A DNA stretch of 48,006 nt from a virus (IMGVR_UViG_2541047905_000004:1-48006); one strand, 5' to 3'. Positions 1 through 48,006 are shown, numbered from the stretch's first letter. Numbers and translations: made by a program. Notes: generated by a model not told the origin, from the sequence alone.

Positions 1-478
1 GCGCCGGGTTCCCGGCATGTGTCTGGCGGGGGAAGGCTGCATCGTTCTCTGGTGTATCCGGTGTGCGCCAGAACACACCATCGATGGCCAGCAGGGTCAG
101 GCCGCACCAGTGCGGATGCGGCGTGGCGTTATGCCAGAGCTGCGCTGTTTTCGTGAACACGCGGCGGACAGCCTCACTTCCCAGGCGCTGGCGGGCCTGA
201 ATAACGGCACTGGGGGCAACGAAGGGGCGATTGCCCGGCAGCATGATGTCCAGGCGATTCACAATCTGGTGAAGAGGTTCTTTACGCTCAAGCGCCATGC
301 CAACAATACACCAGACCATCATTTCGAGGGGAAGACGGCGCTTGCGTAGCGTTACAGTACCTGATTCGGCAAGGCAACGAGAGATGAGTTCGGGGTCGAG
401 GTAATCCCCCAGAGAAGTCAGTGGGTTACGCAGAGAATCGTAACGGGATACCAGATCAAGAGCCTGTCCAATGTGCAT
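1..478 (-). CDS. insG: IS4-family transposase, N-terminal part (runs off the window start)
   Basis: Minus-strand ORF with ATG at 476-478 (rc). Translation MHIGQALDLVSRYDSLRNPLTSLGDYLDPELISRCLAESGTVTLRKRRLPLEMMVWCIVGMALERKEPLHQIVNRLD... recognised from memory as the IS4 transposase N-terminus. Track ORF 17..349 (+) is its antisense shadow. Confidence 0.75.
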   Translation of the reverse strand, partial: MHIGQALDLVSRYDSLRNPLTSLGDYLDPELISRCLAESGTVTLRKRRLPLEMMVWCIVGMALERKEPLHQIVNRLDIMLPGNRPFVAPSAVIQARQRLGSEAVRRVFTKTAQLWHNATPHPHWCGLTLLAIDGVFWRTPDTPENDAAFPRQTHAGNPA

Positions 479-511
479 AAAAAAATCCGGAAACAAGTGA
501 GCGTTTCCGGA
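479..511 (-). terminator. Hairpin plus T-run immediately 5' of the IS4 transposase ATG (read-through terminator or RBS-sequestering structure)
   Basis: Minus strand reads ATCCGGAAAC-GCTCACTT-GTTTCCGGAT followed by TTTTTT then ATG. 10-bp perfect stem seen directly; function inferred. Confidence 0.4.
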
Positions 512-741
512 TTCTTACACAGCCACTGGATCGGTCAACTGATCCTTAACTGATCGGCATTACCTCCAATAGAGAGCATTTTTACTGTATGTATAACCAG
601 TGTCAATGTATGAAATCCTGCGACCATACATCTCACTGAAGCCATAATGAAGTAGGCTATTCTTTTTGCTATGTGATCATGTAACTTTTGCGGTTAACCT
701 GTGGCTCATTTTTATTTTAGGCGCAGATATAAAAGCAAAAG

Positions 742-933
742 TTATCGTGAGTTTTTAGTACAGATTTTTTTGGATTTACTAATAGTTCCATCATTGCAAA
801 CGAATTTGCCATCAGAGGTACAGTGAGAAACACCTCCCTTTTTCCCTGAGCAGGGATAATTTCTAGCATAGGTAGCTAGTGGGTTTAATAACAAAGAACA
901 TGACAAAACCACAAAAAATACCTTACCAAGCAT
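742..933 (-). CDS. Small secreted or lipoprotein-like hypothetical protein (63 aa), AT-rich
   Basis: ATG at 933 (rc) preceded by GGGAGG; hydrophobic N-terminus [20 protein letters not shown]; Cys-rich mature part; AT-rich relative to the phage core. Sits where int would be expected downstream of cI. Confidence 0.4.
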
Positions 934-948
934 AATTTCCTCCCGGTA

Positions 949-1518
949 CTATTTAACATACTTGACTGTTAAACTTATAATTTTACCAATTATTTCAATG
1001 TCTTCTATCTTACATTCAAAGGCTCTGTTTCCACCCTCGACGAAGATTCTTCCACCGGGTAAACGAGTAATGTCACGGATCGTTATTTCGCCATCAATAC
1101 TTATTACCCATTTACCATCACGTATATCATCAAATTCCTTATCACAAATAAATTCAGAATTATTATCTGTGATTACAAAAAGATTCTTGAATGCCGACGG
1201 TAGAAATTCTCTATCGAAAATATAAAAACCGTCTTCACACAAGGCCCCATCAGATAATACATATTTAGCAACTTCCATAGTATTTGTATTACCTGAAGTT
1301 TGCTTTGAACCATGCCCGGTTGTGAGCCAATTAAGCGAGGTGCCTGTTTCAAGGGCGCACTGGATTACCCATTCTGCTGGGAATGAGTCACGCATGTAGC
1401 GTGTGGCGAGTGTACTTTTAGAGATTCCTAAATGATCGCACAACGCCTGTCGAGTCTTGAATCCATAAGCTTCTACCATGCGCTCTATGGCGCCTCGTCC
1501 GCCTTTCTCCAAATTCAT
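949..1518 (-). CDS. cI: Phage 186-type CI immunity repressor
   Basis: ATG at 1518 (rc) with GGAG upstream (the track ORF starts 6 nt earlier at GTG). N-terminal HTH-like region AYGFKTRQALCDHLGISKSTLATRYMRDSFPAEWVIQCALETGTSLNWLTTG typical of 186-family CI; leftward orientation facing the early operon. Confidence 0.7.
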   Translation of the reverse strand: MNLEKGGRGAIERMVEAYGFKTRQALCDHLGISKSTLATRYMRDSFPAEWVIQCALETGTSLNWLTTGHGSKQTSGNTNTMEVAKYVLSDGALCEDGFYIFDREFLPSAFKNLFVITDNNSEFICDKEFDDIRDGKWVISIDGEITIRDITRLPGGRIFVEGGNRAFECKIEDIEIIGKIISLTVKYVK

Positions 1519-1524
1519 GGTCAC

Positions 1525-1643
1525 TCCAAGTGAACTTTTATCTTGACGATTTCACCGTGCGATCGTATGTTTATGGTGTTCACAAAATACAAACGATCCG
1601 TATTCGTCCTGATTAATCATCATTAAACGAGGAATGTTGCATC
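1525..1643. promoter_or_regulatory. Immunity switch region with rightward lytic promoter candidate; leftward cI promoter and operators expected here
   Basis: -35 TTGACG at 1543-1548, 17-bp spacer, -10 TATGTT at 1566-1571 on the + strand; inverted GTGAAC...GTTCAC around it. A face-to-face pR/pL arrangement is inferred from 186 biology and not resolved here. Confidence 0.45.
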
Positions 1644-1865
1644 ATGAGACCTAACATTTCAATCACTCTTACCACGCCTCATGTGACTATTGAACGCTAT
1701 AGCGAGCTGACAGGGCTATCCATCGATACCATCAATGACATGTTGGCTGATGGACGCCTTATCCGTCACCGTCTGCGCAAAGATAAAAAACGCGAAAAAG
1801 TGATGATCAACATAGCAGCAATGACCGTTGATGCGCTTTCAGAATGCAATCTAAACCTTAATTAG
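1644..1865 (+). CDS. Small DNA-binding regulator at the Apl/Cox position (first gene of the rightward early operon)
   Basis: ATG at 1644; 73 aa, basic; position equivalent to 186 apl / P2 cox. Sequence homology not verifiable by eye. Confidence 0.45.
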
Positions 1866-1897
1866 TTCGATTCTGAAATACATCAGAGGCATTGACC

Positions 1898-2407
1898 ATG
1901 TTTGATTACCAAGTTTCCAAACATCCACATTTTGATGAAGCCTGTCGTGCATTTGCACTGCGCCACAATCTGGTGCAACTGGCAGAACGTGCAGGCATGA
2001 ATGTGCAGATTCTGCGGAACAAGCTGAACCCAGCTCAGCCTCATTTATTAACCGCACCAGAAATCTGGCTGCTTACCGATCTGACTGAAGATTCAACGCT
2101 GGTAGATGGTTTTCTGGCACAGATTCATTGTCTGCCATGTGTACCGATTAATGAGGTGGCAAAAGAGAAACTGCCACATTACGTCATGAGTGCAACCGCA
2201 GAGATCGGGCGTGTTGCTGCAGGTGCGGTGTCTGGCGATGTAAAAACCTGTGCCGGTCGTCGTGATGCTATCAGCAGCATTAACTCTGTAACACGACTGA
2301 TGGCGCTGGCGGCTGTTTCATTGCAGGCCCGTTTACAGGCTAATCCTGCGATGGCGAGTGCAGTTGATACCGTGACTGGCCTCGGTGCTTCATTTGGTTT
2401 GCTGTGA
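1898..2407 (+). CDS. cII: Phage regulatory protein CII (186 CII-like)
   Basis: ATG at 1898 with GAGG 8 nt upstream (track ORF starts at TTG 1892); about 169 aa; second gene of the early operon; sequence of the type I recall as 186 CII. Confidence 0.55.
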
Positions 2408-2414
2408 GGTGCTT

Positions 2415-2615
2415 ATGCTGACGAAAGAACCATCATTTGCATCGCTGCTGGTTAAACAAAGCCCGGCAATGCATTACGGTCACGGCTGGATCATGGGGGA
2501 GGATGGTAAACGCTGGCATCCGTGCCGTTCACAAGATGAATTGCTGGCAGAACTATCTACGAAAAAACGGGGGAACAAATGGCTATTGAAGGCACTGCGG
2601 CGACTGTTCCATTAA
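2415..2615 (+). CDS. Small early protein, possibly Fil-like
   Basis: ATG at 2415 after GAGG (track ORF starts at GTG 2385); 66 aa with HYGHGWIMGEDGKRWHPCRSQDELL; family assignment from memory only. Confidence 0.35.
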   Translation: MLTKEPSFASLLVKQSPAMHYGHGWIMGEDGKRWHPCRSQDELLAELSTKKRGNKWLLKALRRLFH

Positions 2616-2920
2616 GCCCCGGTGAACGCCTGAATGGACTTAATCACATTGCGGAGTTAAGGGCGAAAGTTTTTGGCCTGAATATTGAGTCAGAGCTTGA
2701 GCGGTTTATTAAAGATATGCGTGATTCACGGGATATTAATAGCGAACAAAATAAACGGGCACTGGCTGCCATATTCTTTATGGCAAAAATTCCAGCTGAA
2801 CGTCATAGCATCAGCATTAATGAGCTGACCACTGACGAAAAGCGGGAGTTGATTAAAGCAATGAATCATTTTCGTGCAGTGGTGAGCTTATTTCCCAGAC
2901 GGCTAACCATGCCGAATTAA
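2579..2920 (+). CDS. Hypothetical early-operon protein (113 aa)
   Basis: ATG at 2579 after GGGGGA; overlaps the previous gene end; same-strand operon context. Confidence 0.4.
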   Translation: MAIEGTAATVPLSPGERLNGLNHIAELRAKVFGLNIESELERFIKDMRDSRDINSEQNKRALAAIFFMAKIPAERHSISINELTTDEKRELIKAMNHFRAVVSLFPRRLTMPN

Positions 2921-2987
2921 CCAACTAATGAAATTAATGGCGTAAACCCGCCGGGCATCCCTTTATCTAAATTCAGGAGAATTGATT

Positions 2988-3221
2988 ATGCGTAATATTG
3001 AAACCCTCTCGACCAAAACCGGACCGGATGACGCAGGGCTTAATATTTTACTGACAGAGGCTCGTCTGGAAGAACGCCGGGCAAGGGCTGAAGCAATGGC
3101 AGCTCGCCTTGATAGCCTGGCGTGTCATATCACATCCCGCCAGCTAACCCACGTCGAAGCGGCAGAACTGCTTCGTGTGACTGCTGAAGCAATCCAGAAC
3201 GAAGCGCAGGAGATCCACTAA
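2988..3221 (+). CDS. Hypothetical early-operon protein (77 aa)
   Basis: ATG at 2988, 8 nt after AGGAGA (track ORF starts at TTG 2982). Confidence 0.4.
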   Translation: MRNIETLSTKTGPDDAGLNILLTEARLEERRARAEAMAARLDSLACHITSRQLTHVEAAELLRVTAEAIQNEAQEIH

Positions 3222-3448
3222 TGGCTGATGCAATGGATCTCGTACAGCAGCGCGTTGAAGAAGAACGCCAACGCCATATCCGTGCTGCCCGTGCCAAAAC
3301 GCCGGGCGTGTCCCGCGTGCTTTGCATTGAGTGTGAAGCGCCAATTCCGCCAGCACGCCGCCGTGCCATTCCGGGTGTGCAGCTTTGCATTACCTGTCAG
3401 GAAATCGCAGAGCTGAAAGGCAAACATTACAACGGAGGTGCTGTATGA
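3221..3448 (+). CDS. TraR/DksA-family C4 zinc-finger protein
   Basis: ATG at 3221 after AGGAG; motif CIECEAPIPPARRRAIPGVQLCITCQ...KHY matches the TraR/DksA C4 zinc finger (CxxC-N17-CxxC). Confidence 0.65.
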   Translation: MADAMDLVQQRVEEERQRHIRAARAKTPGVSRVLCIECEAPIPPARRRAIPGVQLCITCQEIAELKGKHYNGGAV

Positions 3449-4302
3449 GCACCATCCTGAAATGGGCGGGAAATAAAACTGCCATAATGTCCGAACTAAA
3501 AAAACATCTTCCTGCTGGCCCGCGACTGGTTGAACCTTTCGCGGGTTCCTGTGCTGTGATGATGGAGACGGATTATCCCAGCTATCTGGTTGCGGATATT
3601 AATCCTGATTTAATCAACCTCTATAAAAAGGTTGCCGCTGATTGTGAATCGTTTATATCTCGCGCCAGAGTTTTATTTGAGATCGCAAACAGGGAGGTGG
3701 CTTATTACAACATAAGGCAGGAGTTTAATTACTCAACTGAAATTACTGATTTCATGAAAGCGGTATATTTCCTGTATCTCAATCGTCACGGTTACCGTGG
3801 TTTATGTCGCTATAACAAGAGCGGGCATTTCAACATTCCCTACGGTAATTATAAAAATCCGTATTTCCCTGAAAAAGAAATTCGCGCATTTGCAGAAAAG
3901 GCCCAGCGAGCAACGTTTATCTGCGCCAGCTTTGATGAAACGCTGGCGATGTTGAAGGCGGGGGATGTGGTGTATTGCGATCCGCCGTATGACGGTACGT
4001 TTTCCGGCTATCACACTGACGGCTTCACTGAAGATGACCAGTATCACCTGGCATCTGTTCTTGAACATCGGTCATCAGAAGGACATCCGGTCATTGTTTC
4101 TAACAGTGACACATCCCTGATCCGTTCGCTGTATCGCAATTTTACTCACCACTACATCAAGGCAAAACGCAGCATCGGTGTGGCAGCTGGCGAGGGTAAA
4201 TCAGCAACAGAAATCATTGCTGTTTCCGGGCCGCGCTGCTGGGTGGGATTTGATTATTCGCGTGGCGTGGATAGTTCTGCCGTGTACGGAGTACGTGCAT
4301 GA
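3445..4302 (+). CDS. dam: DNA adenine methyltransferase (Dam-like, D12 class N6-MTase)
   Basis: ATG at 3445 after GGAGG (track ORF starts earlier). Motifs KWAGNK, FAGSCAV and DPPY in [11 protein letters not shown]...[10 protein letters not shown]...[11 protein letters not shown]. Overlaps the TraR stop and the A start (ATGA-type couplings). Confidence 0.8.
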
Positions 4303-6713
4303 GTCATGCCGATATGAACAACTGCTGCGGCTTTAACGAAGCTGCCGCATCGTTCTCATGGAACAGCTCGAAAAAGGCCATTAACCCTTATCTGGACCCG
4401 GTGGAAGTTGCGCCGGTTTCTACGCTTTCAAACCTGATCACTCTGTACGCTGCCGATAACGAGCAGGAACAGCTGCGCCGTGAGGCGCTGAGTGATCAGG
4501 TCTGGGAGCGTTATTTCTTTAATGAATCCCGTGATCCTGTCCAGCGCGAAATGGAACAGGATAAGCTCATTAGTCGGGCAAAGCTGGCGCATGAGCAGCA
4601 GCGTTTTAATCCGGATATGGTCATTCTGGCGGACGTCAACGCCCAGCCTTCCCATATCAGCAAGCCGCTGATGCAACGTATTGAATACTTCAGCAGCCTG
4701 GGCAGGCCAAAGGCTTATTCCCGCTATTTACGTGAGACGATTAAGCCATGTCTGGAACGACTGGAGCATGTACGCGACAGTCAGCTATCTGCATCTTTTC
4801 GCTTTATGGCAAGCCATGAAGGGCTGGACGGCCTGCTGATCCTGCCTGAAATGAGTCAGGATCAGGTGAAACGCCTGTCCACCCTGGTAGCTGCGCATAT
4901 GAGTATGTGCCTTGATGCCGCTTGTGGCGATTTGTATGCTACCGATGACGTTAAGCCAGAAGAAATCCGCAATACATGGGAAAGGGTGGCAGCGGAAACC
5001 CTGCGTCTGGATGTCATCCCGCCTGCGTTTGAGCAACTCCGTCGGAAAAGAAACCGCCGTAAACCCGTGCCCTATGAACTCATTCCGGGTTCGCTGGCGC
5101 GTATGTTGTGCGCCGACTGGTGGTATCGGAAATTATGGAAGATGCGTTGCGAATGGCGGGAAGAGCAGTTGCGTGCTGTCTGCCTTGTCAGCAAAAAAGC
5201 ATCTCCCTATGTCAGCTATGAAGCCGTGTTGCATAAACGTGAGCAGCGCCGTAAGTCGCTGGAGTTTTTCCGTTCTCATGAACTGGTGAACGAAGACGGC
5301 GACACGCTAGACATGGAGGATGTGGTAAACGCCAGCAGCAGCAACCCTGCGCATCGCCGCAATGAGATGATGGCCTGTGTTAAAGGTCTGGAGCTTATCG
5401 CGGAAATGCGCGGTGACTGCGCCGTTTTCTACACCATCACCTGTCCGTCACGTTTCCATTCCACGCTAAATAACGGCAGGCCCAACCCGACCTGGACAAA
5501 TGCGACGGTAAGACAAAGCAGCGATTATCTGGTCGGTATGTTTGCTGCATTTCGTAAGGCGATGCACAAAGCCGGGTTGCGCTGGTATGGCGTGCGGGTG
5601 GCTGAGCCGCATCACGACGGCACAGTTCACTGGCACCTGTTGTGTTTCATGCGCAAAAAAGACCGCCGCGCCATTACAGCATTGTTGCGTAAGTTTGCTA
5701 TCCGTGAAGACCGCGAGGAGCTGGGCAATAACACGGGGCCGCGCTTTAAGTCTGAGCTGATTAACCCGCGCAAAGGAACGCCGACAAGCTACATAGCGAA
5801 ATACATCAGTAAGAACATTGACGGGCGTGGTCTGGCTGGCGAGATCAGCAAGGAAACGGGTAAATCTCTGCGTGATAACGCTGAATACGTGAATGCCTGG
5901 GCGTCTTTGCATCGTGTTCAGCAATTCCGCTTCTTTGGCATTCCGGGGCGTCAGGCTTACCGTGAACTGCGATTGCTGGCTGGTCAGGCGGTAAGGCAAA
6001 AGGGGGACAAAAAAGCAGGTGCGCCGGTACTGGATAACCCGCGCCTTGATGCCATCCTGGCTGCTGCTGATGCTGGTTGTTTTGCCACCTACATCATGAA
6101 GCAGGGCGGCGTACTGGTTCCCCGTAAATATCACCTCATCAGAACCGCTTATGAAATCAACGAAGAGCCGACCGCCTATGGCGATCACGGCATTCGTATT
6201 TATGGCATCTGGTCACCCATTGCAGAGGGCAAGATCTGCACTCATGCAGTGAAGTGGAAAATGGTTCGTAAAGCCGTTGACGTTCAGGAGGCGGCAGCCG
6301 ACCAGGGCGCTTGCGCCCCTTGGACTCGTGGCAATAACTGTCCCCTTGCTGAAAATTTGAACCAACAGGAGAAAGATAAATCAGCTGATGGGGACACTAG
6401 AACGGACATTAACCGCATGGATGACAAGGAGTTGCACGATTACCTGCACAGTATGAGCAAAAAAGAGCGCCGGGAACTGGCAGCAAGGTTACGCCTGGTT
6501 AAACCGAAACGGCGTAAAGACTACAAACAGCGAATTACAGACCATCAGCGACTGCAGCTCGTCTATGAGCTGAAGTCCAGAGGATTTGATGGTAGCGAGA
6601 AAGAGGTCGATTTACTCCTTCGCGGCGGCAGTATTCCGTCAGGAGCAGGCCTGCGTATCTTCTATCGGAACCAGCGTTTGCGGGAAGATGATAAGTGGCG
6701 GGATCTGTATTAA
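4299..6713 (+). CDS. A: P2/186-type replication initiation protein A (rolling-circle HUH endonuclease)
   Basis: 804 aa; HUH-like VHWHLLCF and tyrosine motif YIAKYISK; position after the early regulators as in P2/186. Confidence 0.85.
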
Positions 6714-6805
6714 TTACGCGGGTTAACAATTCGTGCTCTTAATAATACCAGGCATATCAGGCTGATGAACGTAAAAAAACGTTTTACATCAGTAAGATTA
6801 TTATA

Positions 6806-6825
6806 TACTGTAAATATAAACAGTG
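6806..6825. promoter_or_regulatory. LexA (SOS) box candidate
   Basis: TACTGTAAATATAAACAGTG contains CTG-N10-CAG in an AT-rich spacer, matching the TACTGT(AT)4ACAGTA consensus; 40 bp upstream of the 6866 ORF. Confidence 0.55.
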
Positions 6826-6865
6826 ATTATATATACAGTATTGCTTTGGTGTCATAGGAGGAAAG

Positions 6866-7054
6866 ATGCAGGACTATTTTTTGGAGTCTTTGAAGCTCCA
6901 GCGCATTGATTTTTTTCTTAAGCTTGTAGCGGCTAGTGAGTGTAGTGATGAAGAGAAGGGGCTGGCTCTGCAGTGGGTTTCTGAGTTGACTGATGAACTC
7001 ATGGCAAAAATCAGAACTCACGAATACAACCGCTCAATGGATGTCATCAGTTGA
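6866..7054 (+). CDS. Hypothetical SOS-regulated small protein (62 aa)
   Basis: ATG at 6866 after AGGAGG; first ORF downstream of the LexA box. Confidence 0.4.
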   Translation: MQDYFLESLKLQRIDFFLKLVAASECSDEEKGLALQWVSELTDELMAKIRTHEYNRSMDVIS

Positions 7055-7064
7055 GGTGACTTTT

Positions 7065-7298
7065 ATGCGCATTGAAATAATGATCGATAAAGAGCAGAAG
7101 ATTAGCCAGTCTACCCTGGACGCTCTTGAATCAGAGCTTTACCGCAATCTGCGCCCCCTGTATCCCAAAACGGTAATTCGCATCCGCAAAGGTAGCTCTA
7201 ACGGTGTGGAACTGACCGGACTGCAACTGGACGAAGAAAGAAAACAAGTGATGAAAATTATGCAGAAGGTGTGGGAAGACGACAGCTGGCTGCATTAA
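7065..7298 (+). CDS. DinI-like protein (Tum-type antirepressor candidate)
   Basis: ATG at 7065 after GAGGTGA (track ORF starts earlier); MRIEIMIDKEQ...LDALESELYRNL...KIMQKVWEDDSWLH aligns by eye to E. coli DinI (MRIEV...DALAGEL...ILQETWESADDW). Confidence 0.6.
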   Translation: MRIEIMIDKEQKISQSTLDALESELYRNLRPLYPKTVIRIRKGSSNGVELTGLQLDEERKQVMKIMQKVWEDDSWLH

Positions 7299-7457
7299 GA
7301 AAAGTTGCTGGCGTCTGAACTTGGTTCTGGCGTCAGCAAGGTTGAACAACGAGTACAGTGAGGCGTTAGGTGTGGCGTTTATTTGATGAGTGAACGCCCG
7401 TTCTCCGACAGGTTCGGAGATTAAGGTTGAAACTACGGGCAAAATACCATCTTTTTC

Positions 7458-7883
7458 CTACTTAATTGAGTCCAGTAACAAGTTACAGTTACTCTCATTG
7501 TAGAGAGAACGAGCAATTAGTGTTACCTGCTTTCCATTCATTCCCGGCTTATCCCATAACACAGCTTCTTGCGACGCCACAAATTCAGCATAATCAATTA
7601 TGCGTTGTTCGTGATCTGGTTCCTCATAGCCAAAGTATGAGAGCGCATCGTTGTAAGCGTGGTAAGCTGCTTTCTGTAATATCTTGATATCGGCTGTAGG
7701 TACTTGCCCCGTGTAGCTAGGATCTAATTGTGTGCTACTGCCATAGAATGCACATGAAAGGTAAGATATTGATTTCTGTTGAGCTTTAGTTCCTTTCTCA
7801 TAGTTTTTAGCTGTTACCGCCTGAACTGGGACGCTAACAAAGCTTGCAACCAGAATTAAAATTAATACGTAAAAGCTTTTCAT
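7458..7883 (-). CDS. Secreted hypothetical protein (141 aa), AT-rich moron
   Basis: ATG at 7883 (rc) after GAGG; signal-peptide-like MKSFYVLILILVASFVSVPVQA; AT-rich; opposite strand to neighbours. Confidence 0.5.
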   Translation of the reverse strand: MKSFYVLILILVASFVSVPVQAVTAKNYEKGTKAQQKSISYLSCAFYGSSTQLDPSYTGQVPTADIKILQKAAYHAYNDALSYFGYEEPDHEQRIIDYAEFVASQEAVLWDKPGMNGKQVTLIARSLYNESNCNLLLDSIK

Positions 7884-8155
7884 TTTGACCTCAGCCGAAA
7901 CGTTAGAGAGACTATCGAAATTTGTAAAACCCGTGGCGATTCAGTTTGAGATCCTCCCCCTTACATGATTTTTAATCAAATATATGCTTTTGTAAGCATA
8001 CCTGTTAACCGAATTATTTATTTTTAGAGATCTTCCGACATACTGATTATACCCGCTGAGGAGTTCACCTTGCGTAAAGTCCGATTCGCTTTACTCGTTT
8101 GTGCATGTCTATGCTGCATGAGATTGCATGATCGTTTGAGGATCGTTTTTGCTAA

Positions 8156-8180: not shown

Positions 8181-8225
8181 GCGTAGATCATGCACCTGCA
8201 TGAAAACCACTACATAAAGCGGGCA

Positions 8226-39679: not shown

Positions 39680-39970
39680 TTATTCTTTAATAAGAGTACC
39701 CCAATCTACATCAGATTCTGCAACTACAATATTAATTGAACATTGTACGCACTCCTCACTTATTCTCGTATAAGTGAAATATCTAGTTTTAACAATACCA
39801 CTAAACGAAGACCGACTATTGTCATTACATATAGAGACAAAATCACCTACATTGGGAAGTAGAAGAAAAGGATTTTCTTCTGACGAACAGCCTACTATAT
39901 CTCCGTCATCAATTGGTCTTGTGGACCCTTTAGGCAAGTATTGGTAATCATAGCTATATATCGTTTTCAT
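39680..39970 (-). CDS. Hypothetical Cys-containing small protein (mirror copy)
   Basis: Mirror of 8351..8641. Confidence 0.45.
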   Translation of the reverse strand: MKTIYSYDYQYLPKGSTRPIDDGDIVGCSSEENPFLLLPNVGDFVSICNDNSRSSFSGIVKTRYFTYTRISEECVQCSINIVVAESDVDWGTLIKE

Positions 39971-40076
39971 AACCTATCATTTTCCATATCTAAAACTTCA
40001 TAGAGGGACTAAATATCCTTCGCATTTTACATTTAGTCAATATTTTTCAATTCAATCTGTTATGTCATCCCGCGCG

Positions 40077-40095
40077 CTCGTATCCCCGCCACGCC
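40077..40095. other. Candidate cos site (mirror copy)
   Basis: Mirror of 8226..8244. Confidence 0.3.
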
Positions 40096-40140
40096 TGCCC
40101 GCTTTATGTAGTGGTTTTCATGCAGGTGCATGATCTACGC

Positions 40141-40165
40141 AAAAGCCCGCCAGTTCTGGCGGGCC
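40141..40165 (-). terminator. Terminator-like hairpin (mirror copy)
   Basis: Mirror of 8156..8180. Confidence 0.4.
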
Positions 40166-40437
40166 TTAGCAAAAACGATCCTCAAACGATCATGCAATCT
40201 CATGCAGCATAGACATGCACAAACGAGTAAAGCGAATCGGACTTTACGCAAGGTGAACTCCTCAGCGGGTATAATCAGTATGTCGGAAGATCTCTAAAAA
40301 TAAATAATTCGGTTAACAGGTATGCTTACAAAAGCATATATTTGATTAAAAATCATGTAAGGGGGAGGATCTCAAACTGAATCGCCACGGGTTTTACAAA
40401 TTTCGATAGTCTCTCTAACGTTTCGGCTGAGGTCAAA

Positions 40438-40863
40438 ATGAAAAGCTTTTACGTATTAATTTTAATTCTGGTTGCAAGCTTTGTTAGCGTCCCAGTTCAG
40501 GCGGTAACAGCTAAAAACTATGAGAAAGGAACTAAAGCTCAACAGAAATCAATATCTTACCTTTCATGTGCATTCTATGGCAGTAGCACACAATTAGATC
40601 CTAGCTACACGGGGCAAGTACCTACAGCCGATATCAAGATATTACAGAAAGCAGCTTACCACGCTTACAACGATGCGCTCTCATACTTTGGCTATGAGGA
40701 ACCAGATCACGAACAACGCATAATTGATTATGCTGAATTTGTGGCGTCGCAAGAAGCTGTGTTATGGGATAAGCCGGGAATGAATGGAAAGCAGGTAACA
40801 CTAATTGCTCGTTCTCTCTACAATGAGAGTAACTGTAACTTGTTACTGGACTCAATTAAGTAG
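40438..40863 (+). CDS. Secreted hypothetical protein (mirror copy)
   Basis: Mirror of 7458..7883. Confidence 0.5.
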   Translation: MKSFYVLILILVASFVSVPVQAVTAKNYEKGTKAQQKSISYLSCAFYGSSTQLDPSYTGQVPTADIKILQKAAYHAYNDALSYFGYEEPDHEQRIIDYAEFVASQEAVLWDKPGMNGKQVTLIARSLYNESNCNLLLDSIK

Positions 40864-41022
40864 GAAAAAGATGGTATTTTGCCCGTAGTTTCAACCTTAA
40901 TCTCCGAACCTGTCGGAGAACGGGCGTTCACTCATCAAATAAACGCCACACCTAACGCCTCACTGTACTCGTTGTTCAACCTTGCTGACGCCAGAACCAA
41001 GTTCAGACGCCAGCAACTTTTC

Positions 41023-41256
41023 TTAATGCAGCCAGCTGTCGTCTTCCCACACCTTCTGCATAATTTTCATCACTTGTTTTCTTTCTTCGTCCAGTTGCAG
41101 TCCGGTCAGTTCCACACCGTTAGAGCTACCTTTGCGGATGCGAATTACCGTTTTGGGATACAGGGGGCGCAGATTGCGGTAAAGCTCTGATTCAAGAGCG
41201 TCCAGGGTAGACTGGCTAATCTTCTGCTCTTTATCGATCATTATTTCAATGCGCAT
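41023..41256 (-). CDS. DinI-like protein (mirror copy)
   Basis: Mirror of 7065..7298. Confidence 0.6.
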   Translation of the reverse strand: MRIEIMIDKEQKISQSTLDALESELYRNLRPLYPKTVIRIRKGSSNGVELTGLQLDEERKQVMKIMQKVWEDDSWLH

Positions 41257-41266
41257 AAAAGTCACC

Positions 41267-41455
41267 TCAACTGATGACATCCATTGAGCGGTTGTATTCG
41301 TGAGTTCTGATTTTTGCCATGAGTTCATCAGTCAACTCAGAAACCCACTGCAGAGCCAGCCCCTTCTCTTCATCACTACACTCACTAGCCGCTACAAGCT
41401 TAAGAAAAAAATCAATGCGCTGGAGCTTCAAAGACTCCAAAAAATAGTCCTGCAT
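41267..41455 (-). CDS. Hypothetical SOS-regulated small protein (mirror copy)
   Basis: Mirror of 6866..7054. Confidence 0.4.
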   Translation of the reverse strand: MQDYFLESLKLQRIDFFLKLVAASECSDEEKGLALQWVSELTDELMAKIRTHEYNRSMDVIS

Positions 41456-41495
41456 CTTTCCTCCTATGACACCAAAGCAATACTGTATATATAAT

Positions 41496-41515
41496 CACTG
41501 TTTATATTTACAGTA
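41496..41515. promoter_or_regulatory. LexA box candidate (mirror copy)
   Basis: Mirror of 6806..6825. Confidence 0.55.
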
Positions 41516-41607
41516 TATAATAATCTTACTGATGTAAAACGTTTTTTTACGTTCATCAGCCTGATATGCCTGGTATTATTAAGAGCACGAATTGTTAACC
41601 CGCGTAA

Positions 41608-44022
41608 TTAATACAGATCCCGCCACTTATCATCTTCCCGCAAACGCTGGTTCCGATAGAAGATACGCAGGCCTGCTCCTGACGGAATACTGCCGCCGCG
41701 AAGGAGTAAATCGACCTCTTTCTCGCTACCATCAAATCCTCTGGACTTCAGCTCATAGACGAGCTGCAGTCGCTGATGGTCTGTAATTCGCTGTTTGTAG
41801 TCTTTACGCCGTTTCGGTTTAACCAGGCGTAACCTTGCTGCCAGTTCCCGGCGCTCTTTTTTGCTCATACTGTGCAGGTAATCGTGCAACTCCTTGTCAT
41901 CCATGCGGTTAATGTCCGTTCTAGTGTCCCCATCAGCTGATTTATCTTTCTCCTGTTGGTTCAAATTTTCAGCAAGGGGACAGTTATTGCCACGAGTCCA
42001 AGGGGCGCAAGCGCCCTGGTCGGCTGCCGCCTCCTGAACGTCAACGGCTTTACGAACCATTTTCCACTTCACTGCATGAGTGCAGATCTTGCCCTCTGCA
42101 ATGGGTGACCAGATGCCATAAATACGAATGCCGTGATCGCCATAGGCGGTCGGCTCTTCGTTGATTTCATAAGCGGTTCTGATGAGGTGATATTTACGGG
42201 GAACCAGTACGCCGCCCTGCTTCATGATGTAGGTGGCAAAACAACCAGCATCAGCAGCAGCCAGGATGGCATCAAGGCGCGGGTTATCCAGTACCGGCGC
42301 ACCTGCTTTTTTGTCCCCCTTTTGCCTTACCGCCTGACCAGCCAGCAATCGCAGTTCACGGTAAGCCTGACGCCCCGGAATGCCAAAGAAGCGGAATTGC
42401 TGAACACGATGCAAAGACGCCCAGGCATTCACGTATTCAGCGTTATCACGCAGAGATTTACCCGTTTCCTTGCTGATCTCGCCAGCCAGACCACGCCCGT
42501 CAATGTTCTTACTGATGTATTTCGCTATGTAGCTTGTCGGCGTTCCTTTGCGCGGGTTAATCAGCTCAGACTTAAAGCGCGGCCCCGTGTTATTGCCCAG
42601 CTCCTCGCGGTCTTCACGGATAGCAAACTTACGCAACAATGCTGTAATGGCGCGGCGGTCTTTTTTGCGCATGAAACACAACAGGTGCCAGTGAACTGTG
42701 CCGTCGTGATGCGGCTCAGCCACCCGCACGCCATACCAGCGCAACCCGGCTTTGTGCATCGCCTTACGAAATGCAGCAAACATACCGACCAGATAATCGC
42801 TGCTTTGTCTTACCGTCGCATTTGTCCAGGTCGGGTTGGGCCTGCCGTTATTTAGCGTGGAATGGAAACGTGACGGACAGGTGATGGTGTAGAAAACGGC
42901 GCAGTCACCGCGCATTTCCGCGATAAGCTCCAGACCTTTAACACAGGCCATCATCTCATTGCGGCGATGCGCAGGGTTGCTGCTGCTGGCGTTTACCACA
43001 TCCTCCATGTCTAGCGTGTCGCCGTCTTCGTTCACCAGTTCATGAGAACGGAAAAACTCCAGCGACTTACGGCGCTGCTCACGTTTATGCAACACGGCTT
43101 CATAGCTGACATAGGGAGATGCTTTTTTGCTGACAAGGCAGACAGCACGCAACTGCTCTTCCCGCCATTCGCAACGCATCTTCCATAATTTCCGATACCA
43201 CCAGTCGGCGCACAACATACGCGCCAGCGAACCCGGAATGAGTTCATAGGGCACGGGTTTACGGCGGTTTCTTTTCCGACGGAGTTGCTCAAACGCAGGC
43301 GGGATGACATCCAGACGCAGGGTTTCCGCTGCCACCCTTTCCCATGTATTGCGGATTTCTTCTGGCTTAACGTCATCGGTAGCATACAAATCGCCACAAG
43401 CGGCATCAAGGCACATACTCATATGCGCAGCTACCAGGGTGGACAGGCGTTTCACCTGATCCTGACTCATTTCAGGCAGGATCAGCAGGCCGTCCAGCCC
43501 TTCATGGCTTGCCATAAAGCGAAAAGATGCAGATAGCTGACTGTCGCGTACATGCTCCAGTCGTTCCAGACATGGCTTAATCGTCTCACGTAAATAGCGG
43601 GAATAAGCCTTTGGCCTGCCCAGGCTGCTGAAGTATTCAATACGTTGCATCAGCGGCTTGCTGATATGGGAAGGCTGGGCGTTGACGTCCGCCAGAATGA
43701 CCATATCCGGATTAAAACGCTGCTGCTCATGCGCCAGCTTTGCCCGACTAATGAGCTTATCCTGTTCCATTTCGCGCTGGACAGGATCACGGGATTCATT
43801 AAAGAAATAACGCTCCCAGACCTGATCACTCAGCGCCTCACGGCGCAGCTGTTCCTGCTCGTTATCGGCAGCGTACAGAGTGATCAGGTTTGAAAGCGTA
43901 GAAACCGGCGCAACTTCCACCGGGTCCAGATAAGGGTTAATGGCCTTTTTCGAGCTGTTCCATGAGAACGATGCGGCAGCTTCGTTAAAGCCGCAGCAGT
44001 TGTTCATATCGGCATGACTCAT
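41608..44022 (-). CDS. A: Replication initiation protein A (mirror copy)
   Basis: Mirror of 4299..6713. Confidence 0.85.
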
Positions 44023-44876
44023 GCACGTACTCCGTACACGGCAGAACTATCCACGCCACGCGAATAATCAAATCCCACCCAGCAGCGCGGCCCGGAAACA
44101 GCAATGATTTCTGTTGCTGATTTACCCTCGCCAGCTGCCACACCGATGCTGCGTTTTGCCTTGATGTAGTGGTGAGTAAAATTGCGATACAGCGAACGGA
44201 TCAGGGATGTGTCACTGTTAGAAACAATGACCGGATGTCCTTCTGATGACCGATGTTCAAGAACAGATGCCAGGTGATACTGGTCATCTTCAGTGAAGCC
44301 GTCAGTGTGATAGCCGGAAAACGTACCGTCATACGGCGGATCGCAATACACCACATCCCCCGCCTTCAACATCGCCAGCGTTTCATCAAAGCTGGCGCAG
44401 ATAAACGTTGCTCGCTGGGCCTTTTCTGCAAATGCGCGAATTTCTTTTTCAGGGAAATACGGATTTTTATAATTACCGTAGGGAATGTTGAAATGCCCGC
44501 TCTTGTTATAGCGACATAAACCACGGTAACCGTGACGATTGAGATACAGGAAATATACCGCTTTCATGAAATCAGTAATTTCAGTTGAGTAATTAAACTC
44601 CTGCCTTATGTTGTAATAAGCCACCTCCCTGTTTGCGATCTCAAATAAAACTCTGGCGCGAGATATAAACGATTCACAATCAGCGGCAACCTTTTTATAG
44701 AGGTTGATTAAATCAGGATTAATATCCGCAACCAGATAGCTGGGATAATCCGTCTCCATCATCACAGCACAGGAACCCGCGAAAGGTTCAACCAGTCGCG
44801 GGCCAGCAGGAAGATGTTTTTTTAGTTCGGACATTATGGCAGTTTTATTTCCCGCCCATTTCAGGATGGTGCTCAT
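44019..44876 (-). CDS. dam: Dam-like DNA adenine methyltransferase (mirror copy)
   Basis: Mirror of 3445..4302. Confidence 0.8.
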
Positions 44877-45100
44877 ACAGCACCTCCGTTGTAATGTTTG
44901 CCTTTCAGCTCTGCGATTTCCTGACAGGTAATGCAAAGCTGCACACCCGGAATGGCACGGCGGCGTGCTGGCGGAATTGGCGCTTCACACTCAATGCAAA
45001 GCACGCGGGACACGCCCGGCGTTTTGGCACGGGCAGCACGGATATGGCGTTGGCGTTCTTCTTCAACGCGCTGCTGTACGAGATCCATTGCATCAGCCAT
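44873..45100 (-). CDS. TraR/DksA-family zinc-finger protein (mirror copy)
   Basis: Mirror of 3221..3448. Confidence 0.65.
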   Translation of the reverse strand: MADAMDLVQQRVEEERQRHIRAARAKTPGVSRVLCIECEAPIPPARRRAIPGVQLCITCQEIAELKGKHYNGGAV

Positions 45101-45333
45101 TAGTGGATCTCCTGCGCTTCGTTCTGGATTGCTTCAGCAGTCACACGAAGCAGTTCTGCCGCTTCGACGTGGGTTAGCTGGCGGGATGTGATATGACACG
45201 CCAGGCTATCAAGGCGAGCTGCCATTGCTTCAGCCCTTGCCCGGCGTTCTTCCAGACGAGCCTCTGTCAGTAAAATATTAAGCCCTGCGTCATCCGGTCC
45301 GGTTTTGGTCGAGAGGGTTTCAATATTACGCAT
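45100..45333 (-). CDS. Hypothetical early protein, 77 aa (mirror copy)
   Basis: Mirror of 2988..3221. Confidence 0.4.
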   Translation of the reverse strand: MRNIETLSTKTGPDDAGLNILLTEARLEERRARAEAMAARLDSLACHITSRQLTHVEAAELLRVTAEAIQNEAQEIH

Positions 45334-45400
45334 AATCAATTCTCCTGAATTTAGATAAAGGGATGCCCGGCGGGTTTACGCCATTAATTTCATTAGTTGG

Positions 45401-45742
45401 TTAATTCGGCATGGTTAGCCGTCTGGGAAATAAGCTCACCACTGCACGAAAATGATTCATTGCTTTAATCAACTCCCGCTTTTCGTCAGTGGTCAGCTCA
45501 TTAATGCTGATGCTATGACGTTCAGCTGGAATTTTTGCCATAAAGAATATGGCAGCCAGTGCCCGTTTATTTTGTTCGCTATTAATATCCCGTGAATCAC
45601 GCATATCTTTAATAAACCGCTCAAGCTCTGACTCAATATTCAGGCCAAAAACTTTCGCCCTTAACTCCGCAATGTGATTAAGTCCATTCAGGCGTTCACC
45701 GGGGCTTAATGGAACAGTCGCCGCAGTGCCTTCAATAGCCAT
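45401..45742 (-). CDS. Hypothetical early protein, 113 aa (mirror copy)
   Basis: Mirror of 2579..2920. Confidence 0.4.
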   Translation of the reverse strand: MAIEGTAATVPLSPGERLNGLNHIAELRAKVFGLNIESELERFIKDMRDSRDINSEQNKRALAAIFFMAKIPAERHSISINELTTDEKRELIKAMNHFRAVVSLFPRRLTMPN

Positions 45743-45906
45743 TTGTTCCCCCGTTTTTTCGTAGATAGTTCTGCCAGCAATTCATCTTGTGAACGGCACG
45801 GATGCCAGCGTTTACCATCCTCCCCCATGATCCAGCCGTGACCGTAATGCATTGCCGGGCTTTGTTTAACCAGCAGCGATGCAAATGATGGTTCTTTCGT
45901 CAGCAT
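45706..45906 (-). CDS. Small early protein, possibly Fil-like (mirror copy)
   Basis: Mirror of 2415..2615. Confidence 0.35.
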   Translation of the reverse strand: MLTKEPSFASLLVKQSPAMHYGHGWIMGEDGKRWHPCRSQDELLAELSTKKRGNKWLLKALRRLFH

Positions 45907-45913
45907 AAGCACC

Positions 45914-46423
45914 TCACAGCAAACCAAATGAAGCACCGAGGCCAGTCACGGTATCAACTGCACTCGCCATCGCAGGATTAGCCTGTAAACGGGCCTGCAA
46001 TGAAACAGCCGCCAGCGCCATCAGTCGTGTTACAGAGTTAATGCTGCTGATAGCATCACGACGACCGGCACAGGTTTTTACATCGCCAGACACCGCACCT
46101 GCAGCAACACGCCCGATCTCTGCGGTTGCACTCATGACGTAATGTGGCAGTTTCTCTTTTGCCACCTCATTAATCGGTACACATGGCAGACAATGAATCT
46201 GTGCCAGAAAACCATCTACCAGCGTTGAATCTTCAGTCAGATCGGTAAGCAGCCAGATTTCTGGTGCGGTTAATAAATGAGGCTGAGCTGGGTTCAGCTT
46301 GTTCCGCAGAATCTGCACATTCATGCCTGCACGTTCTGCCAGTTGCACCAGATTGTGGCGCAGTGCAAATGCACGACAGGCTTCATCAAAATGTGGATGT
46401 TTGGAAACTTGGTAATCAAACAT
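45914..46423 (-). CDS. cII: CII-like regulator (mirror copy)
   Basis: Mirror of 1898..2407. Confidence 0.55.
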
Positions 46424-46455
46424 GGTCAATGCCTCTGATGTATTTCAGAATCGAA

Positions 46456-46677
46456 CTAATTAAGGTTTAGATTGCATTCTGAAAGCGCATCAACGGTCAT
46501 TGCTGCTATGTTGATCATCACTTTTTCGCGTTTTTTATCTTTGCGCAGACGGTGACGGATAAGGCGTCCATCAGCCAACATGTCATTGATGGTATCGATG
46601 GATAGCCCTGTCAGCTCGCTATAGCGTTCAATAGTCACATGAGGCGTGGTAAGAGTGATTGAAATGTTAGGTCTCAT
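46456..46677 (-). CDS. Apl/Cox-position small regulator (mirror copy)
   Basis: Mirror of 1644..1865. Confidence 0.45.
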
Positions 46678-46796
46678 GATGCAACATTCCTCGTTTAATG
46701 ATGATTAATCAGGACGAATACGGATCGTTTGTATTTTGTGAACACCATAAACATACGATCGCACGGTGAAATCGTCAAGATAAAAGTTCACTTGGA
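46678..46796. promoter_or_regulatory. Immunity switch region (mirror copy)
   Basis: Mirror of 1525..1643. Confidence 0.45.
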
Positions 46797-46802
46797 GTGA
46801 CC

Positions 46803-47372
46803 ATGAATTTGGAGAAAGGCGGACGAGGCGCCATAGAGCGCATGGTAGAAGCTTATGGATTCAAGACTCGACAGGCGTTGTGCGATCATTTAGGAATCTC
46901 TAAAAGTACACTCGCCACACGCTACATGCGTGACTCATTCCCAGCAGAATGGGTAATCCAGTGCGCCCTTGAAACAGGCACCTCGCTTAATTGGCTCACA
47001 ACCGGGCATGGTTCAAAGCAAACTTCAGGTAATACAAATACTATGGAAGTTGCTAAATATGTATTATCTGATGGGGCCTTGTGTGAAGACGGTTTTTATA
47101 TTTTCGATAGAGAATTTCTACCGTCGGCATTCAAGAATCTTTTTGTAATCACAGATAATAATTCTGAATTTATTTGTGATAAGGAATTTGATGATATACG
47201 TGATGGTAAATGGGTAATAAGTATTGATGGCGAAATAACGATCCGTGACATTACTCGTTTACCCGGTGGAAGAATCTTCGTCGAGGGTGGAAACAGAGCC
47301 TTTGAATGTAAGATAGAAGACATTGAAATAATTGGTAAAATTATAAGTTTAACAGTCAAGTATGTTAAATAG
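46803..47372 (+). CDS. cI: 186-type CI repressor (mirror copy)
   Basis: Mirror of 949..1518; ATG at 46803 checked in sequence. Confidence 0.7.
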   Translation: MNLEKGGRGAIERMVEAYGFKTRQALCDHLGISKSTLATRYMRDSFPAEWVIQCALETGTSLNWLTTGHGSKQTSGNTNTMEVAKYVLSDGALCEDGFYIFDREFLPSAFKNLFVITDNNSEFICDKEFDDIRDGKWVISIDGEITIRDITRLPGGRIFVEGGNRAFECKIEDIEIIGKIISLTVKYVK

Positions 47373-47387
47373 TACCGGGAGGAAATT

Positions 47388-47579
47388 ATGCTTGGTAAGG
47401 TATTTTTTGTGGTTTTGTCATGTTCTTTGTTATTAAACCCACTAGCTACCTATGCTAGAAATTATCCCTGCTCAGGGAAAAAGGGAGGTGTTTCTCACTG
47501 TACCTCTGATGGCAAATTCGTTTGCAATGATGGAACTATTAGTAAATCCAAAAAAATCTGTACTAAAAACTCACGATAA
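47388..47579 (+). CDS. Small secreted hypothetical protein (mirror copy)
   Basis: Mirror of 742..933. Confidence 0.4.
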
Positions 47580-47809
47580 CTTTTGCTTTTATATCTGCGC
47601 CTAAAATAAAAATGAGCCACAGGTTAACCGCAAAAGTTACATGATCACATAGCAAAAAGAATAGCCTACTTCATTATGGCTTCAGTGAGATGTATGGTCG
47701 CAGGATTTCATACATTGACACTGGTTATACATACAGTAAAAATGCTCTCTATTGGAGGTAATGCCGATCAGTTAAGGATCAGTTGACCGATCCAGTGGCT
47801 GTGTAAGAA

Positions 47810-47842
47810 TCCGGAAACGCTCACTTGTTTCCGGATTTTTTT
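47810..47842 (+). terminator. Hairpin plus T-run 5' of the IS4 transposase ATG (mirror copy)
   Basis: Mirror of 479..511. Confidence 0.4.
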
Positions 47843-48006
47843 ATGCACATTGGACAGGCTCTTGATCTGGTATCCCGTTACGATTCTCTGCGTAACCCAC
47901 TGACTTCTCTGGGGGATTACCTCGACCCCGAACTCATCTCTCGTTGCCTTGCCGAATCAGGTACTGTAACGCTACGCAAGCGCCGTCTTCCCCTCGAAAT
48001 GATGGT
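47843..48006 (+). CDS. insG: IS4-family transposase, first ~54 codons (mirror copy, truncated by window end)
   Basis: ATG at 47843; MHIGQALDLVSRYDSLRNPLTSLGDYLDPELISRCLAESGTVTLRKRRLPLEMM... Confidence 0.75.
   Translation, partial: MHIGQALDLVSRYDSLRNPLTSLGDYLDPELISRCLAESGTVTLRKRRLPLEMM

Follow-up and report, generated by a model that had tools for sequence, protein, structure and literature searches.

Does a scaffold that reads almost as its own reverse complement reflect a structure in the cell, or was it made during assembly? The question is raised by the stretch of DNA analyzed here (the window), 48,006 nucleotides that constitute the complete NCBI scaffold KE701826.1 of the draft E. coli assembly GCA_000460555.1. 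In a base-level comparison, positions 315..23215 and 25106..48006 (22,901 bp each) proved to be reverse complements of one another with 0 mismatches; the window has 0 Ns, and the axis lies between 24160 and 24161. Identity of the arms stops at 23216, where the window has an A and the complement of 25105 is a G. The 1,890 bp between the arms (23216..25105) are complementary about their own axis at 235 of 945 positions (~25%), which is the chance level. A perfect inverted repeat of 22.9 kb cannot have arisen by chance. These measurements bear out a first-pass annotation of the same DNA, which had described a base-perfect palindrome with a 1.9-kb asymmetric centre and this same axis; in line with its claim that ORFs have mirror partners, mirror ORFs appear in the ORF listing. 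It was wrong in supposing that the palindrome probably extends further: the public record comprises the window and nothing more, so there is no palindrome beyond its end, and the partnerless positions 1..314 are internal IS4 sequence.

The window encodes the left two-thirds of a 186/P2-like prophage. The arms and the insertion sequence at their outer ends are arranged as follows, with genes assigned by PHROG and Pfam.

1..562, minus strand: partial IS4, with the N-terminal part of the transposase at 1..496 and the terminal inverted repeat at 544..562; it holds the left end of the scaffold.
315..23215, plus strand: left arm, comprising 248 bp of IS4 and the left part of the 186/P2-like prophage.
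Left arm, first genes: cI, cII, fil, Dam methylase, A, a dinI-like gene and cargo genes.
Left arm, next genes: portal Q, terminase P, O, N, M, L, X, holin, lysozyme, LysB/C, R and S.
Left arm, last genes: a cargo gene for a 598-aa ATPase, V, W, J, I and, of fibre gene H, the constant part (Sc).
25106..48006, minus strand: right arm, matching 315..23215 base for base in reverse complement.
47759..48006, plus strand: mirror IS4 end of 248 bp, with the terminal repeat at 47759..47777; it holds the right end of the scaffold.

The centre is an invertible tail-fibre cassette of the Mu-G/P1-C type, in the order Sv, tfa, tfa', Sv', and its features overlap the inner ends of both arms.

22157..23557, plus strand: tail-fibre gene H in state A, Sc (~353 codons) plus Sv, 466 aa, with a Phage_tail_fib N-terminal domain and Gp53-like_C.
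23193..23218, plus strand: left 26-bp crossover site, TTCTCGCATACC-TT-GGTTTGGGAAAA (outer half-site, core at 23205..23206, inner half-site).
23216..25105, no strand assigned: interior of the invertible segment, with Sv (the C-terminal end of H), tfa (plus), tfa' (minus) and Sv' (minus); not self-complementary.
23579..24019, plus strand: tfa, cognate to Sv, 146 aa (PF02413 Caudo_TAP, E = 8.4e-38).
23991..24584, minus strand: tfa', cognate to Sv', 197 aa (PF02413 Caudo_TAP, E = 1.2e-27).
24584..26164, minus strand: tail-fibre gene H' in state B, Sc plus Sv', 526 aa (domain assignment and protein comparison).
25103..25128, plus strand: right 26-bp site, TTCTCCCAAACC-AA-GGTATGCGAGAA, core AA at 25115..25116.

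Two Caudo_TAP tail-fibre assembly genes thus lie on opposite strands in the centre of the segment, together with a gp53-like C-terminal domain, and this centre is 100% identical to the finished chromosome OZ038772.1 (L007), which also encodes the 466-aa H protein. The 466-aa and 526-aa fibre proteins have their first 354 aa in common and diverge afterwards. Among finished or near-finished chromosomes, L001, L005, L007 and L014 are in state A, and L021 and L022 are in state B. The full-length 526-aa protein is present in finished genomes of state B, for example L022, and at the position of H' the state A genome L007 has an Sv' fragment of only 189 aa. The window contains H' at full length only because the fold-back provides a second copy of Sc.

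The arms terminate inside two 26-bp sites of the Hin/Gin/Cin/Pin type, which lie in inverted orientation and each consist of two 12-bp half-sites and a 2-bp core. Both agree with the 26-bp invertase crossover consensus and with the EC958 Phi2 sites tabulated in PMC4134206, and a search allowing up to 2 substitutions gave no further crossover sites in the window. The left site falls within gene H, at the Sc/Sv boundary, and is identical in L007. The right site is a hybrid, in which the true right inner half-site and the core AA are followed by the left site's outer half-site in reverse complement. The corresponding site of L007 is TTCTCCCAAACC-AA-CGTTTATGAAAA, which the window matches through 25116 and from which it diverges after. 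Read backwards, the right site of the window is the junction that joins Sc to Sv' (Sc::Sv') in the flipped state, and the state B junction produced by in silico inversion was found on the minus strand.

What should follow the segment is seen in the finished relatives. L007 and window positions 12157..25116 agree at every one of 12,960 bp, and L007 leaves the window at 25117, the first base past the core AA. Past this divergence L007 has, in order, the 189-aa Sv' fragment, a 188-aa invertase, sheath, tube, tape measure, U, D, ogr and ybjL; the true continuation past the segment is seen in L001 and L005 as well. The L007 invertase carries Resolvase and HTH_7 domains (PF00239 and PF02796), directly adjoins the right-hand site and matches PDB chain 3uj3_X, deposited as 'DNA-invertase', with E = 2.6e-92; entry 3uj3 we take to be phage Mu Gin. 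An invertase is also found beside the segment in L001, L002, L005, L012-L014, L021 and L022. No recombinase gene was found among the ORFs or called genes of the window, and none of sheath, tube, tape measure, U, D and ogr lies within it. The first-pass annotation had predicted, correctly, that invertase, sheath, tube, tape measure, D and ogr would be missing here; in finished relatives they directly follow the segment. From 25117 on, the place of the true continuation (invertase, sheath, tube, E/E', tape measure, U, D and ogr) is taken by the right arm, which here runs into the reverse complement of Sc. By symmetry, the label of false continuation fits either arm equally.

The cassette itself belongs with known switches. 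The Din family of DNA-invertase tail-fibre switches was reviewed by Sandmeier 1994, as cited in PMC4134206. Like the Mu G segment with Gin, the P1 C segment with Cin and the e14 P segment with Pin, the cassette here has the constant fibre part outside the segment, the alternative C-terminal parts and cognate assembly genes mirrored inside it, two inverted 26-bp sites with a 2-bp core and, in the 100%-identical finished prophage of L007, a serine invertase of ~188 aa adjoining one site. Compared with Mu and P1, the host element is a 186/P2-like prophage and the cassette measures 1.9 kb. In contrast to the family, the window is without the invertase and everything beyond it and has a second, inverted left side instead, and no natural member is so arranged. 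The E. coli EC958 prophages Phi1, Phi2 and Phi4 likewise carry tail-fibre switches with 26-bp sites, and the Phi2 sites, TCCTCAATTACCTT-GGTTTAGGAGAA and GAGAGATAAACGTT-GGTTTGGGGGAA, are closely similar to those described here (PMC4134206).

Collectively, these findings indicate that the palindrome very probably arose when the assembly graph folded back at an invertible segment present in mixed orientations, and is not a chromosomal structure. In the 186/P2-like prophage of the strain, gene H ends in a 1.9-kb cassette of the Mu G/P1 C type, with Sc outside, Sv/tfa and Sv'/tfa' mirrored inside and the two 26-bp sites as bounds, and a Gin-like serine invertase gene would lie just past the right-hand site. 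We infer both that the sequenced culture was a mixture of the two cassette orientations and at which step of the assembly the wrong choice was made. With both orientations in the culture, reads would have backed Sc to Sv as well as Sc to Sv'; because Sc would then be joined to both ends of the cassette in a strand-symmetric graph, a walk from Sc through the cassette into the reverse complement of Sc is locally valid, and the assembler would have chosen this walk over the exit to the invertase side. The same 22.9-kb path would be written twice in opposite orientation, making the arms identical by construction, and the walk would have halted at both ends in the multi-copy IS4 that interrupts the prophage beside int. 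If so, the palindrome is an artefact of the database record rather than new biology; the underlying tail-fibre switch is already known.

Several observations point to this walk, which the first-pass annotation had preferred in the form Sc, Sv, tfa, tfa', Sv', reverse complement of Sc. The arm ends are internal to the sites, L007 exits after the core AA, and of the junctions of the two orientation states the window has both on the Sc side and 0 on the invertase side. Furthermore, L007 and its in silico inversion between them contain every k-mer of window 12157..36164 for k up to 1913; the first k-mer specific to the window appears at k = 1914 and covers 23204..25117. In other short-read assemblies, too, the same prophage is broken at this place, L016 ending at window position 23215 and L015 at 23219, and further ones give the two Sc junction variants, at 100% identity, as separate small contigs of ~2 kb (L004 and L009). 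Mixtures of about 50:50 in the orientation of prophage tail-fibre segments in E. coli culture have been reported to yield spurious contigs (Forde et al. 2014, PMC4134206). In EC958, as here, mixed orientation in culture led to assembly artefacts; the artefact there was an extra contig with the alternative orientation in PacBio data, whereas here 22.9 kb were duplicated inversely and the right third of the prophage was dropped (PMC4134206). Mate-pair or jumping libraries, if used, should have favoured exit into the invertase side, which would count against a fold-back.

A real head-to-head inverted duplication in the cell, which the first-pass annotation had judged less likely, is very improbable. 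It could arise if the invertase joined the left site of one prophage copy to the right site of a sister copy, on sister chromosomes or replicating phage DNA, or if replication switched template at the inverted sites. On paper, the intermolecular route gives precisely the order A - cassette - rc(A), including both observed junctions, and these junctions are legitimate invertase products with exchange at the core dinucleotide, a signature that an intermolecular event would share. Wild-type invertases of the Hin/Gin type, however, depend on an enhancer bound by Fis and on a supercoiled synapse formed within one molecule, so that recombination between molecules is strongly disfavoured; chromosomes joined head to head into a dimer would moreover be inviable. 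An independent assembly, E. coli 2-222-05_S3_C2, seems to share the arrangement: its 466-aa KDX85802.1 and 526-aa KDX85805.1 are both full-length and three accessions apart, and the contig that carries them, at most 70,934 bp long, fell into one group with the window as a 'similar place'. Sister 2-222-05 assemblies, however, give two separate small junction contigs and no palindrome, which fits a choice made by the assembler. Neither the 5,426 complete E. coli genomes nor the 50,697 phage records searched have both arms around the centre, as judged by a single place that covers 80% or more of window 21500..26800; the 100%-identical prophage of L007 has the normal order, unique chromosomal flank is missing at both scaffold ends, with IS4 instead, and the sequence up to 1,913 nt is accounted for without such a structure. 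The first-pass annotation had also invoked instability through SbcCD/RecBCD. This instability concerns near-perfect palindromes, for which the argument holds; it is weak for inverted repeats with a 1.9-kb spacer and so should not be the main case against a real structure. Real inverted repeats measuring 38-76 kb have been reported from the replication terminus in some Lactobacillus chromosomes (PMC5345009), and like the window they span tens of kilobases around a short unique centre. As described there, they lie at the terminus within finished chromosomes and have unique flanks, whereas the window is a free-standing draft scaffold with IS4 at both ends, absent from all finished E. coli genomes searched.

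Two further origins have to be weighed. A chimeric fold-back molecule or read (the first-pass annotation had named a fold-back chimeric long read as an alternative), such as a long read with a missed hairpin adapter or a template-switch chimera of multiple-displacement amplification, is more improbable still. Such artefacts do yield inverted-duplicate sequences, and short inverted repeats such as the two crossover sites favour template switching. However, the arms are without errors over 22.9 kb, unlike a single noisy read; fold-back reads usually turn with little or no loop, and the loop here is exactly the invertible cassette; both junctions are exact recombinant sites, 1.9 kb apart, with the switch at the core dinucleotide; and both ends halt in a repeat, as is typical of graph walks, in what appears to be an older draft with many scaffolds. 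The least probable reading is that two near-identical prophage copies, fixed in opposite cassette orientations, were collapsed by the assembler and then folded back. The graph topology would be the same as for a mixed culture, and many E. coli genomes carry several P2-like prophages. Yet this demands identity over 22.9 kb, including the same IS4 insertion, and orientation mixtures within a culture, which are documented (PMC4134206), are simpler. It would in any case still be an assembly artefact, leaving the verdict on the palindrome unchanged.

In the preferred reading, a graph walk folded back through the cassette, the scaffold ends mark where the walk halted. Both fall inside multi-copy IS4, with no unique chromosomal flank on either side. 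Window positions 1..587 match IS4 in more than 3,000 genomes, and the called gene at 1..496 (minus strand) matches PF13006 Nterm_IS4. The ends are asymmetric, the left arm reaching 314 bp deeper into IS4; this is unexplained by a pure model of a unitig plus its reverse complement and counts against the fold-back model. No marking feature was found in IS4 around position 314/315. Positions 1..562 are 100% identical to the IS4 of E. coli SMS-3-5, with the terminal repeat finishing at 562, and prophage identity to L017 begins at 563, 9 bp upstream of the start of int in L017. In relatives, ybjL/rcdA adjoin the integrated prophage.

Direct comparison of positions 315..23215 with the reverse complement of 25106..48006 revealed two arms of 22,901 bp each with 0 differences between them. 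The window is free of ambiguous bases and its list of open reading frames (ORFs) is mirror-symmetric, confirming the perfect palindrome with an asymmetric centre described in the first-pass annotation. Arm identity breaks off sharply, position 23216 not being complementary to 25105, and the 1,890-bp centre (23216..25105) is self-complementary at 235 of 945 positions, which is the level expected by chance. The palindrome had also been expected to continue past the window; however, an exact-protein look-up showed that the window is the entire NCBI record KE701826.1 (48,006 bp), one scaffold from the draft E. coli assembly GCA_000460555.1, with nothing past 48006. Positions 1..314 are unpaired sequence.

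PHROG, Pfam and called-gene tables assign the encoded content to a 186/P2-like prophage, of which the left two-thirds are present, ending in a tail-fibre switch. Sc denotes the constant part of fibre gene H, Sv and Sv' its alternative C-terminal parts, and tfa and tfa' the cognate assembly genes.

Features of KE701826.1 in order along the left arm and centre
1..562, mirror 47759..48006: IS4 end, 100% identical to canonical IS4
949..1518, minus strand: CI repressor (PHROG, Pfam and called genes)
next after CI: CII, Fil, Dam-type methylase, replication protein A, DinI-like protein
7458..9383, mirror 38938..40863: three cargo ORFs without known function, of 141 aa (minus strand), 96 aa (plus strand) and 228 aa (plus strand)
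next, minus strand: portal and large terminase
next: scaffold, capsid, small terminase, head completion, tail X, holin, lysozyme, LysB/LysC, R, S
17780..19576, minus strand, mirror 28745..30541, plus strand: ABC-type ATPase of 598 aa (AAA_15/AAA_21) ending in a DUF3226 region, on the opposite strand
next: baseplate V, W, J, I, then fibre gene H
23193..23218: left 26-bp site, TTCTCGCATACC-TT-GGTTTGGGAAAA
centre: end of H (Sv), tfa (plus strand), tfa' (minus strand), end of a second fibre ORF (Sv', minus strand)
25103..25128: right 26-bp site, TTCTCCCAAACC-AA-GGTATGCGAGAA

The two fibre ORFs, of 466 aa and 526 aa, are identical over their first 354 residues and unrelated in the remainder. This layout, with a constant start and mirrored ends and assembly genes, is that of an invertible cassette of the Mu G/P1 C type. 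The final bases of each arm belong to one of the 26-bp sites. These sites are built like the Hin/Gin/Cin/Pin crossover sites, with a 2-bp core between two half-sites, and they are close to the sites of EC958 prophage Phi2 and the consensus tabulated in PMC4134206. The edge of the palindrome is a single-base difference between the inner half-sites, 23216 versus 25105 (GGTTTGGGAAAA versus GGTTTGGGAGAA). The corresponding right-hand site in the finished chromosome OZ038772.1 (L007) is TTCTCCCAAACC-AA-CGTTTATGAAAA, where CGTTTATGAAAA is the outer half. Set against it, the right site of the window is a hybrid of the true inner half, the core and the reverse complement of the left outer half; it is the Sc::Sv' junction produced by inversion, read backwards. 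The inner half-sites are identical to each other in three relatives (L001, L005 and L014); there the inverted repeat naturally extends over a few more bases, and the arms of an artefact would lengthen slightly.

The gene order at this place in other genomes was determined by searching 5,426 complete E. coli genomes and 50,697 phage records with window positions 21500..26800. Matches were found in 2,946 of the E. coli genomes, yet a single place covering 80% of the query was found in none of the 5,426 genomes and none of the 50,697 phage records. Instead, the matches comprised either the left arm and centre, ending near 25116-25119, or the stretch from near 23202 through the right arm. The gene past the cassette in finished genomes encodes a 188-aa serine recombinase, followed by sheath, tube, E/E', tape measure, U, D and ogr. 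L007 is 100.000% identical to window positions 12157..25116 (12,960 bp) and departs from the window at 25117, the first base past the central AA of the right site. Downstream, it continues with a 189-aa Sv' fragment, the invertase, the entire right third of the prophage to ogr, and chromosomal ybjL. Resolvase and HTH_7 domains make up its invertase, for which PDB chain 3uj3_X ("DNA-invertase") was a match with an E value of 2.6e-92. None of the invertase, sheath, tube, E/E', tape measure, U, D and ogr genes is among the genes of the window. Both cassette orientations occur in finished genomes: the flipped state in L021 and L022 and the unflipped state in many, including L001, L005, L007 and L014, the last of which has the same order displayed reversed. 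In one further relative, L002 (NZ_LT599825.1, locus 7383..8888), the fibre gene is interrupted and one piece bears the label of a partial "integrase" pseudogene; this looks to be either mis-annotated or the result of an insertion within the fibre gene.

Next to this comparison, k-mers of window positions 12157..36164 were checked on either strand against two cassette states, state A being the 21.4-kb L007 locus itself, with Sc joined to Sv, and state B being L007 with the cassette inverted in silico between the core dinucleotides, with Sc joined to Sv'. No window-only k-mer was found at the tested values of k from 1,913 downwards, and the first appeared at k = 1,914, spanning exactly 23204..25117. 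Reads or fragments shorter than about 1.9 kb therefore cannot tell the scaffold from a mixture of the two states. Each state contributes its Sc-side junction to the window, state A on the plus strand and state B on the minus strand; neither invertase-side junction of the two states is present in it.

These observations argue strongly that the palindrome arose when the assembly folded back at an invertible tail-fibre switch, of a kind already known, and that it has no counterpart in the genome. With the cassette in both orientations, Sc would join both cassette ends in a strand-symmetric assembly graph, so that Sc to cassette to reverse-complemented Sc becomes a valid walk. The arms would be identical by construction, because one path is traversed twice, and a walk ending in IS4 on one side would have an IS4 end on the other side too. 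The first-pass annotation had proposed such a fold-back from mixed cassette orientations, and the switch point at the core dinucleotides, the k-mer test and the gene order of finished genomes all support it. Published work on palindromic unitigs in bidirected de Bruijn graphs deals with true palindromes and does not bear on invertible segments. Because one assembly contains both Sc junctions, there is also indirect evidence for an active switch in this lysogen.

Other assemblies also break or branch at the switch. Short-read contigs of the same prophage stop at window position 23219 in L015 and at 23215 in the Logan contig L016, and in sister assemblies the two junction variants are present as separate contigs of about 2 kb (L004 and L009), 100% identical to the window. 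The records in this KE/EQX range are presumably Broad Institute Illumina/ALLPATHS-LG drafts. Previous work found such segments in both orientations, at approximately 50:50, within an E. coli culture, reported that spurious contigs resulted and warned against integrating those contigs (Forde et al. 2014, PMC4134206). An independent draft, E. coli 2-222-05_S3_C2, encodes full-length 466-aa and 526-aa proteins (KDX85802.1 and KDX85805.1) with accessions three apart, like those of the window, and the protein look-up placed its contig, at most 70,934 bp long, together with the window as a "similar place". This draft probably carries the same fold-back, which suggests that the error is recurrent among public assemblies. 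A literature search on the accessions and the strain found nothing.

A real inverted dimer, formed by intermolecular invertase recombination, would carry the same junctions as the window. However, such a dimer is absent from every finished genome searched, the 100%-identical finished prophage in L007 has normal gene order, the scaffold is without unique flanks, and the dimer would have lost essential tail genes. Invertases of the Hin/Gin type are moreover known for their bias towards intramolecular events, and we regard this origin as improbable. Slightly less credible again is its specific form, a head-to-head dimer in which a Gin-like invertase joins the left site on one copy of the prophage or phage genome to the right site on another, abundantly enough in lysogen cultures to enter two independent assemblies; if true, it would mean that a tail-fibre invertase makes frequent intermolecular recombination in vivo, yielding giant inverted dimers. 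The first-pass annotation had also reasoned that SbcCD would destabilize so long a palindrome. This speaks less strongly against a real structure than was stated and is not decisive, because a 1.9-kb spacer separates the repeats.

A chimeric fold-back long read, which had been offered as another source of the palindrome, would fit poorly both with error-free arms and with a turn-round at two exact recombinant junctions that lie 1.9 kb from each other; we consider it very improbable. Two prophage copies fixed in opposite states, a scarcely credible arrangement here, would still make the palindrome an assembly artefact.

Position 1 of the scaffold lies in IS4 and 48006 mirrors 315, so both ends lie within a multi-copy repeat. 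The IS4 insertion, located 9 bp upstream of the int start position in sister prophages (L017 and L019), separates int from the remaining prophage and is why the scaffold stops at this point; expression of int, or excision, may be affected by it in this strain. The scaffold reaches 562 bp into IS4 on the left and 248 bp on the right, the left arm extending 314 bp further. Divergence of IS4 was ruled out as the cause of this asymmetry, since 1..562 is canonical IS4, and comparison with canonical IS4 found neither a variant nor a boundary at 314/315.

It has been established for decades that invertases switch the tail fibres of E. coli prophages, and the confusion of assemblers by such switches is already published; the main value of the present case is thus database quality control, with little new biology. 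On the fold-back reading, a public NCBI scaffold holds 22.9 kb of prophage falsely duplicated and inverted, with the right third of the phage missing. Every arm gene has two GenBank protein entries from this scaffold (around EQX44326-EQX44339), and the accession list confirmed that the 598-aa ATPase was entered twice (EQX44326.1 and EQX44339.1). About 30 proteins have duplicate GenBank entries because the falsely duplicated scaffold was annotated. Two fibre genes are also recorded at full length, against one full gene and one fragment in the real genome, and the scaffold risks being mistaken for a 48-kb phage or a natural giant palindrome. Similar cases could be screened for by perfect arms ending within 26-bp invertase sites, a mirrored tfa centre, the lack of an invertase and contig ends in repeats.

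Two groups of cargo genes are carried by the arms. The 598-aa ATPase sits between tail genes S and V on the opposite strand, in a slot that is empty in the related locus L001 and occupied by a different gene in L002; this site differs from the classic old/tin hotspot. Its best PADLOC matches were fused PARIS (AriAB, 8.5e-26) and Gabija GajA (2.8e-23), with a clean fit to neither, and it is likely an anti-phage cargo gene. The three-ORF block is flanked by the replication gene A region on one side and the portal gene on the other. None of its 141-, 96- and 228-aa ORFs has a PADLOC match, the two longer have no Pfam match, and all three match only PHROGs of unknown function. The same slot in related prophages holds SIR2, RES, AIPR, DUF262, TIGR02391 or ATPase genes. 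A P2 defence hotspot was reportedly described by Rousset et al. in 2022, and we take the slot between A and portal to be that hotspot; the trio is therefore a candidate for an uncharacterised defence system.
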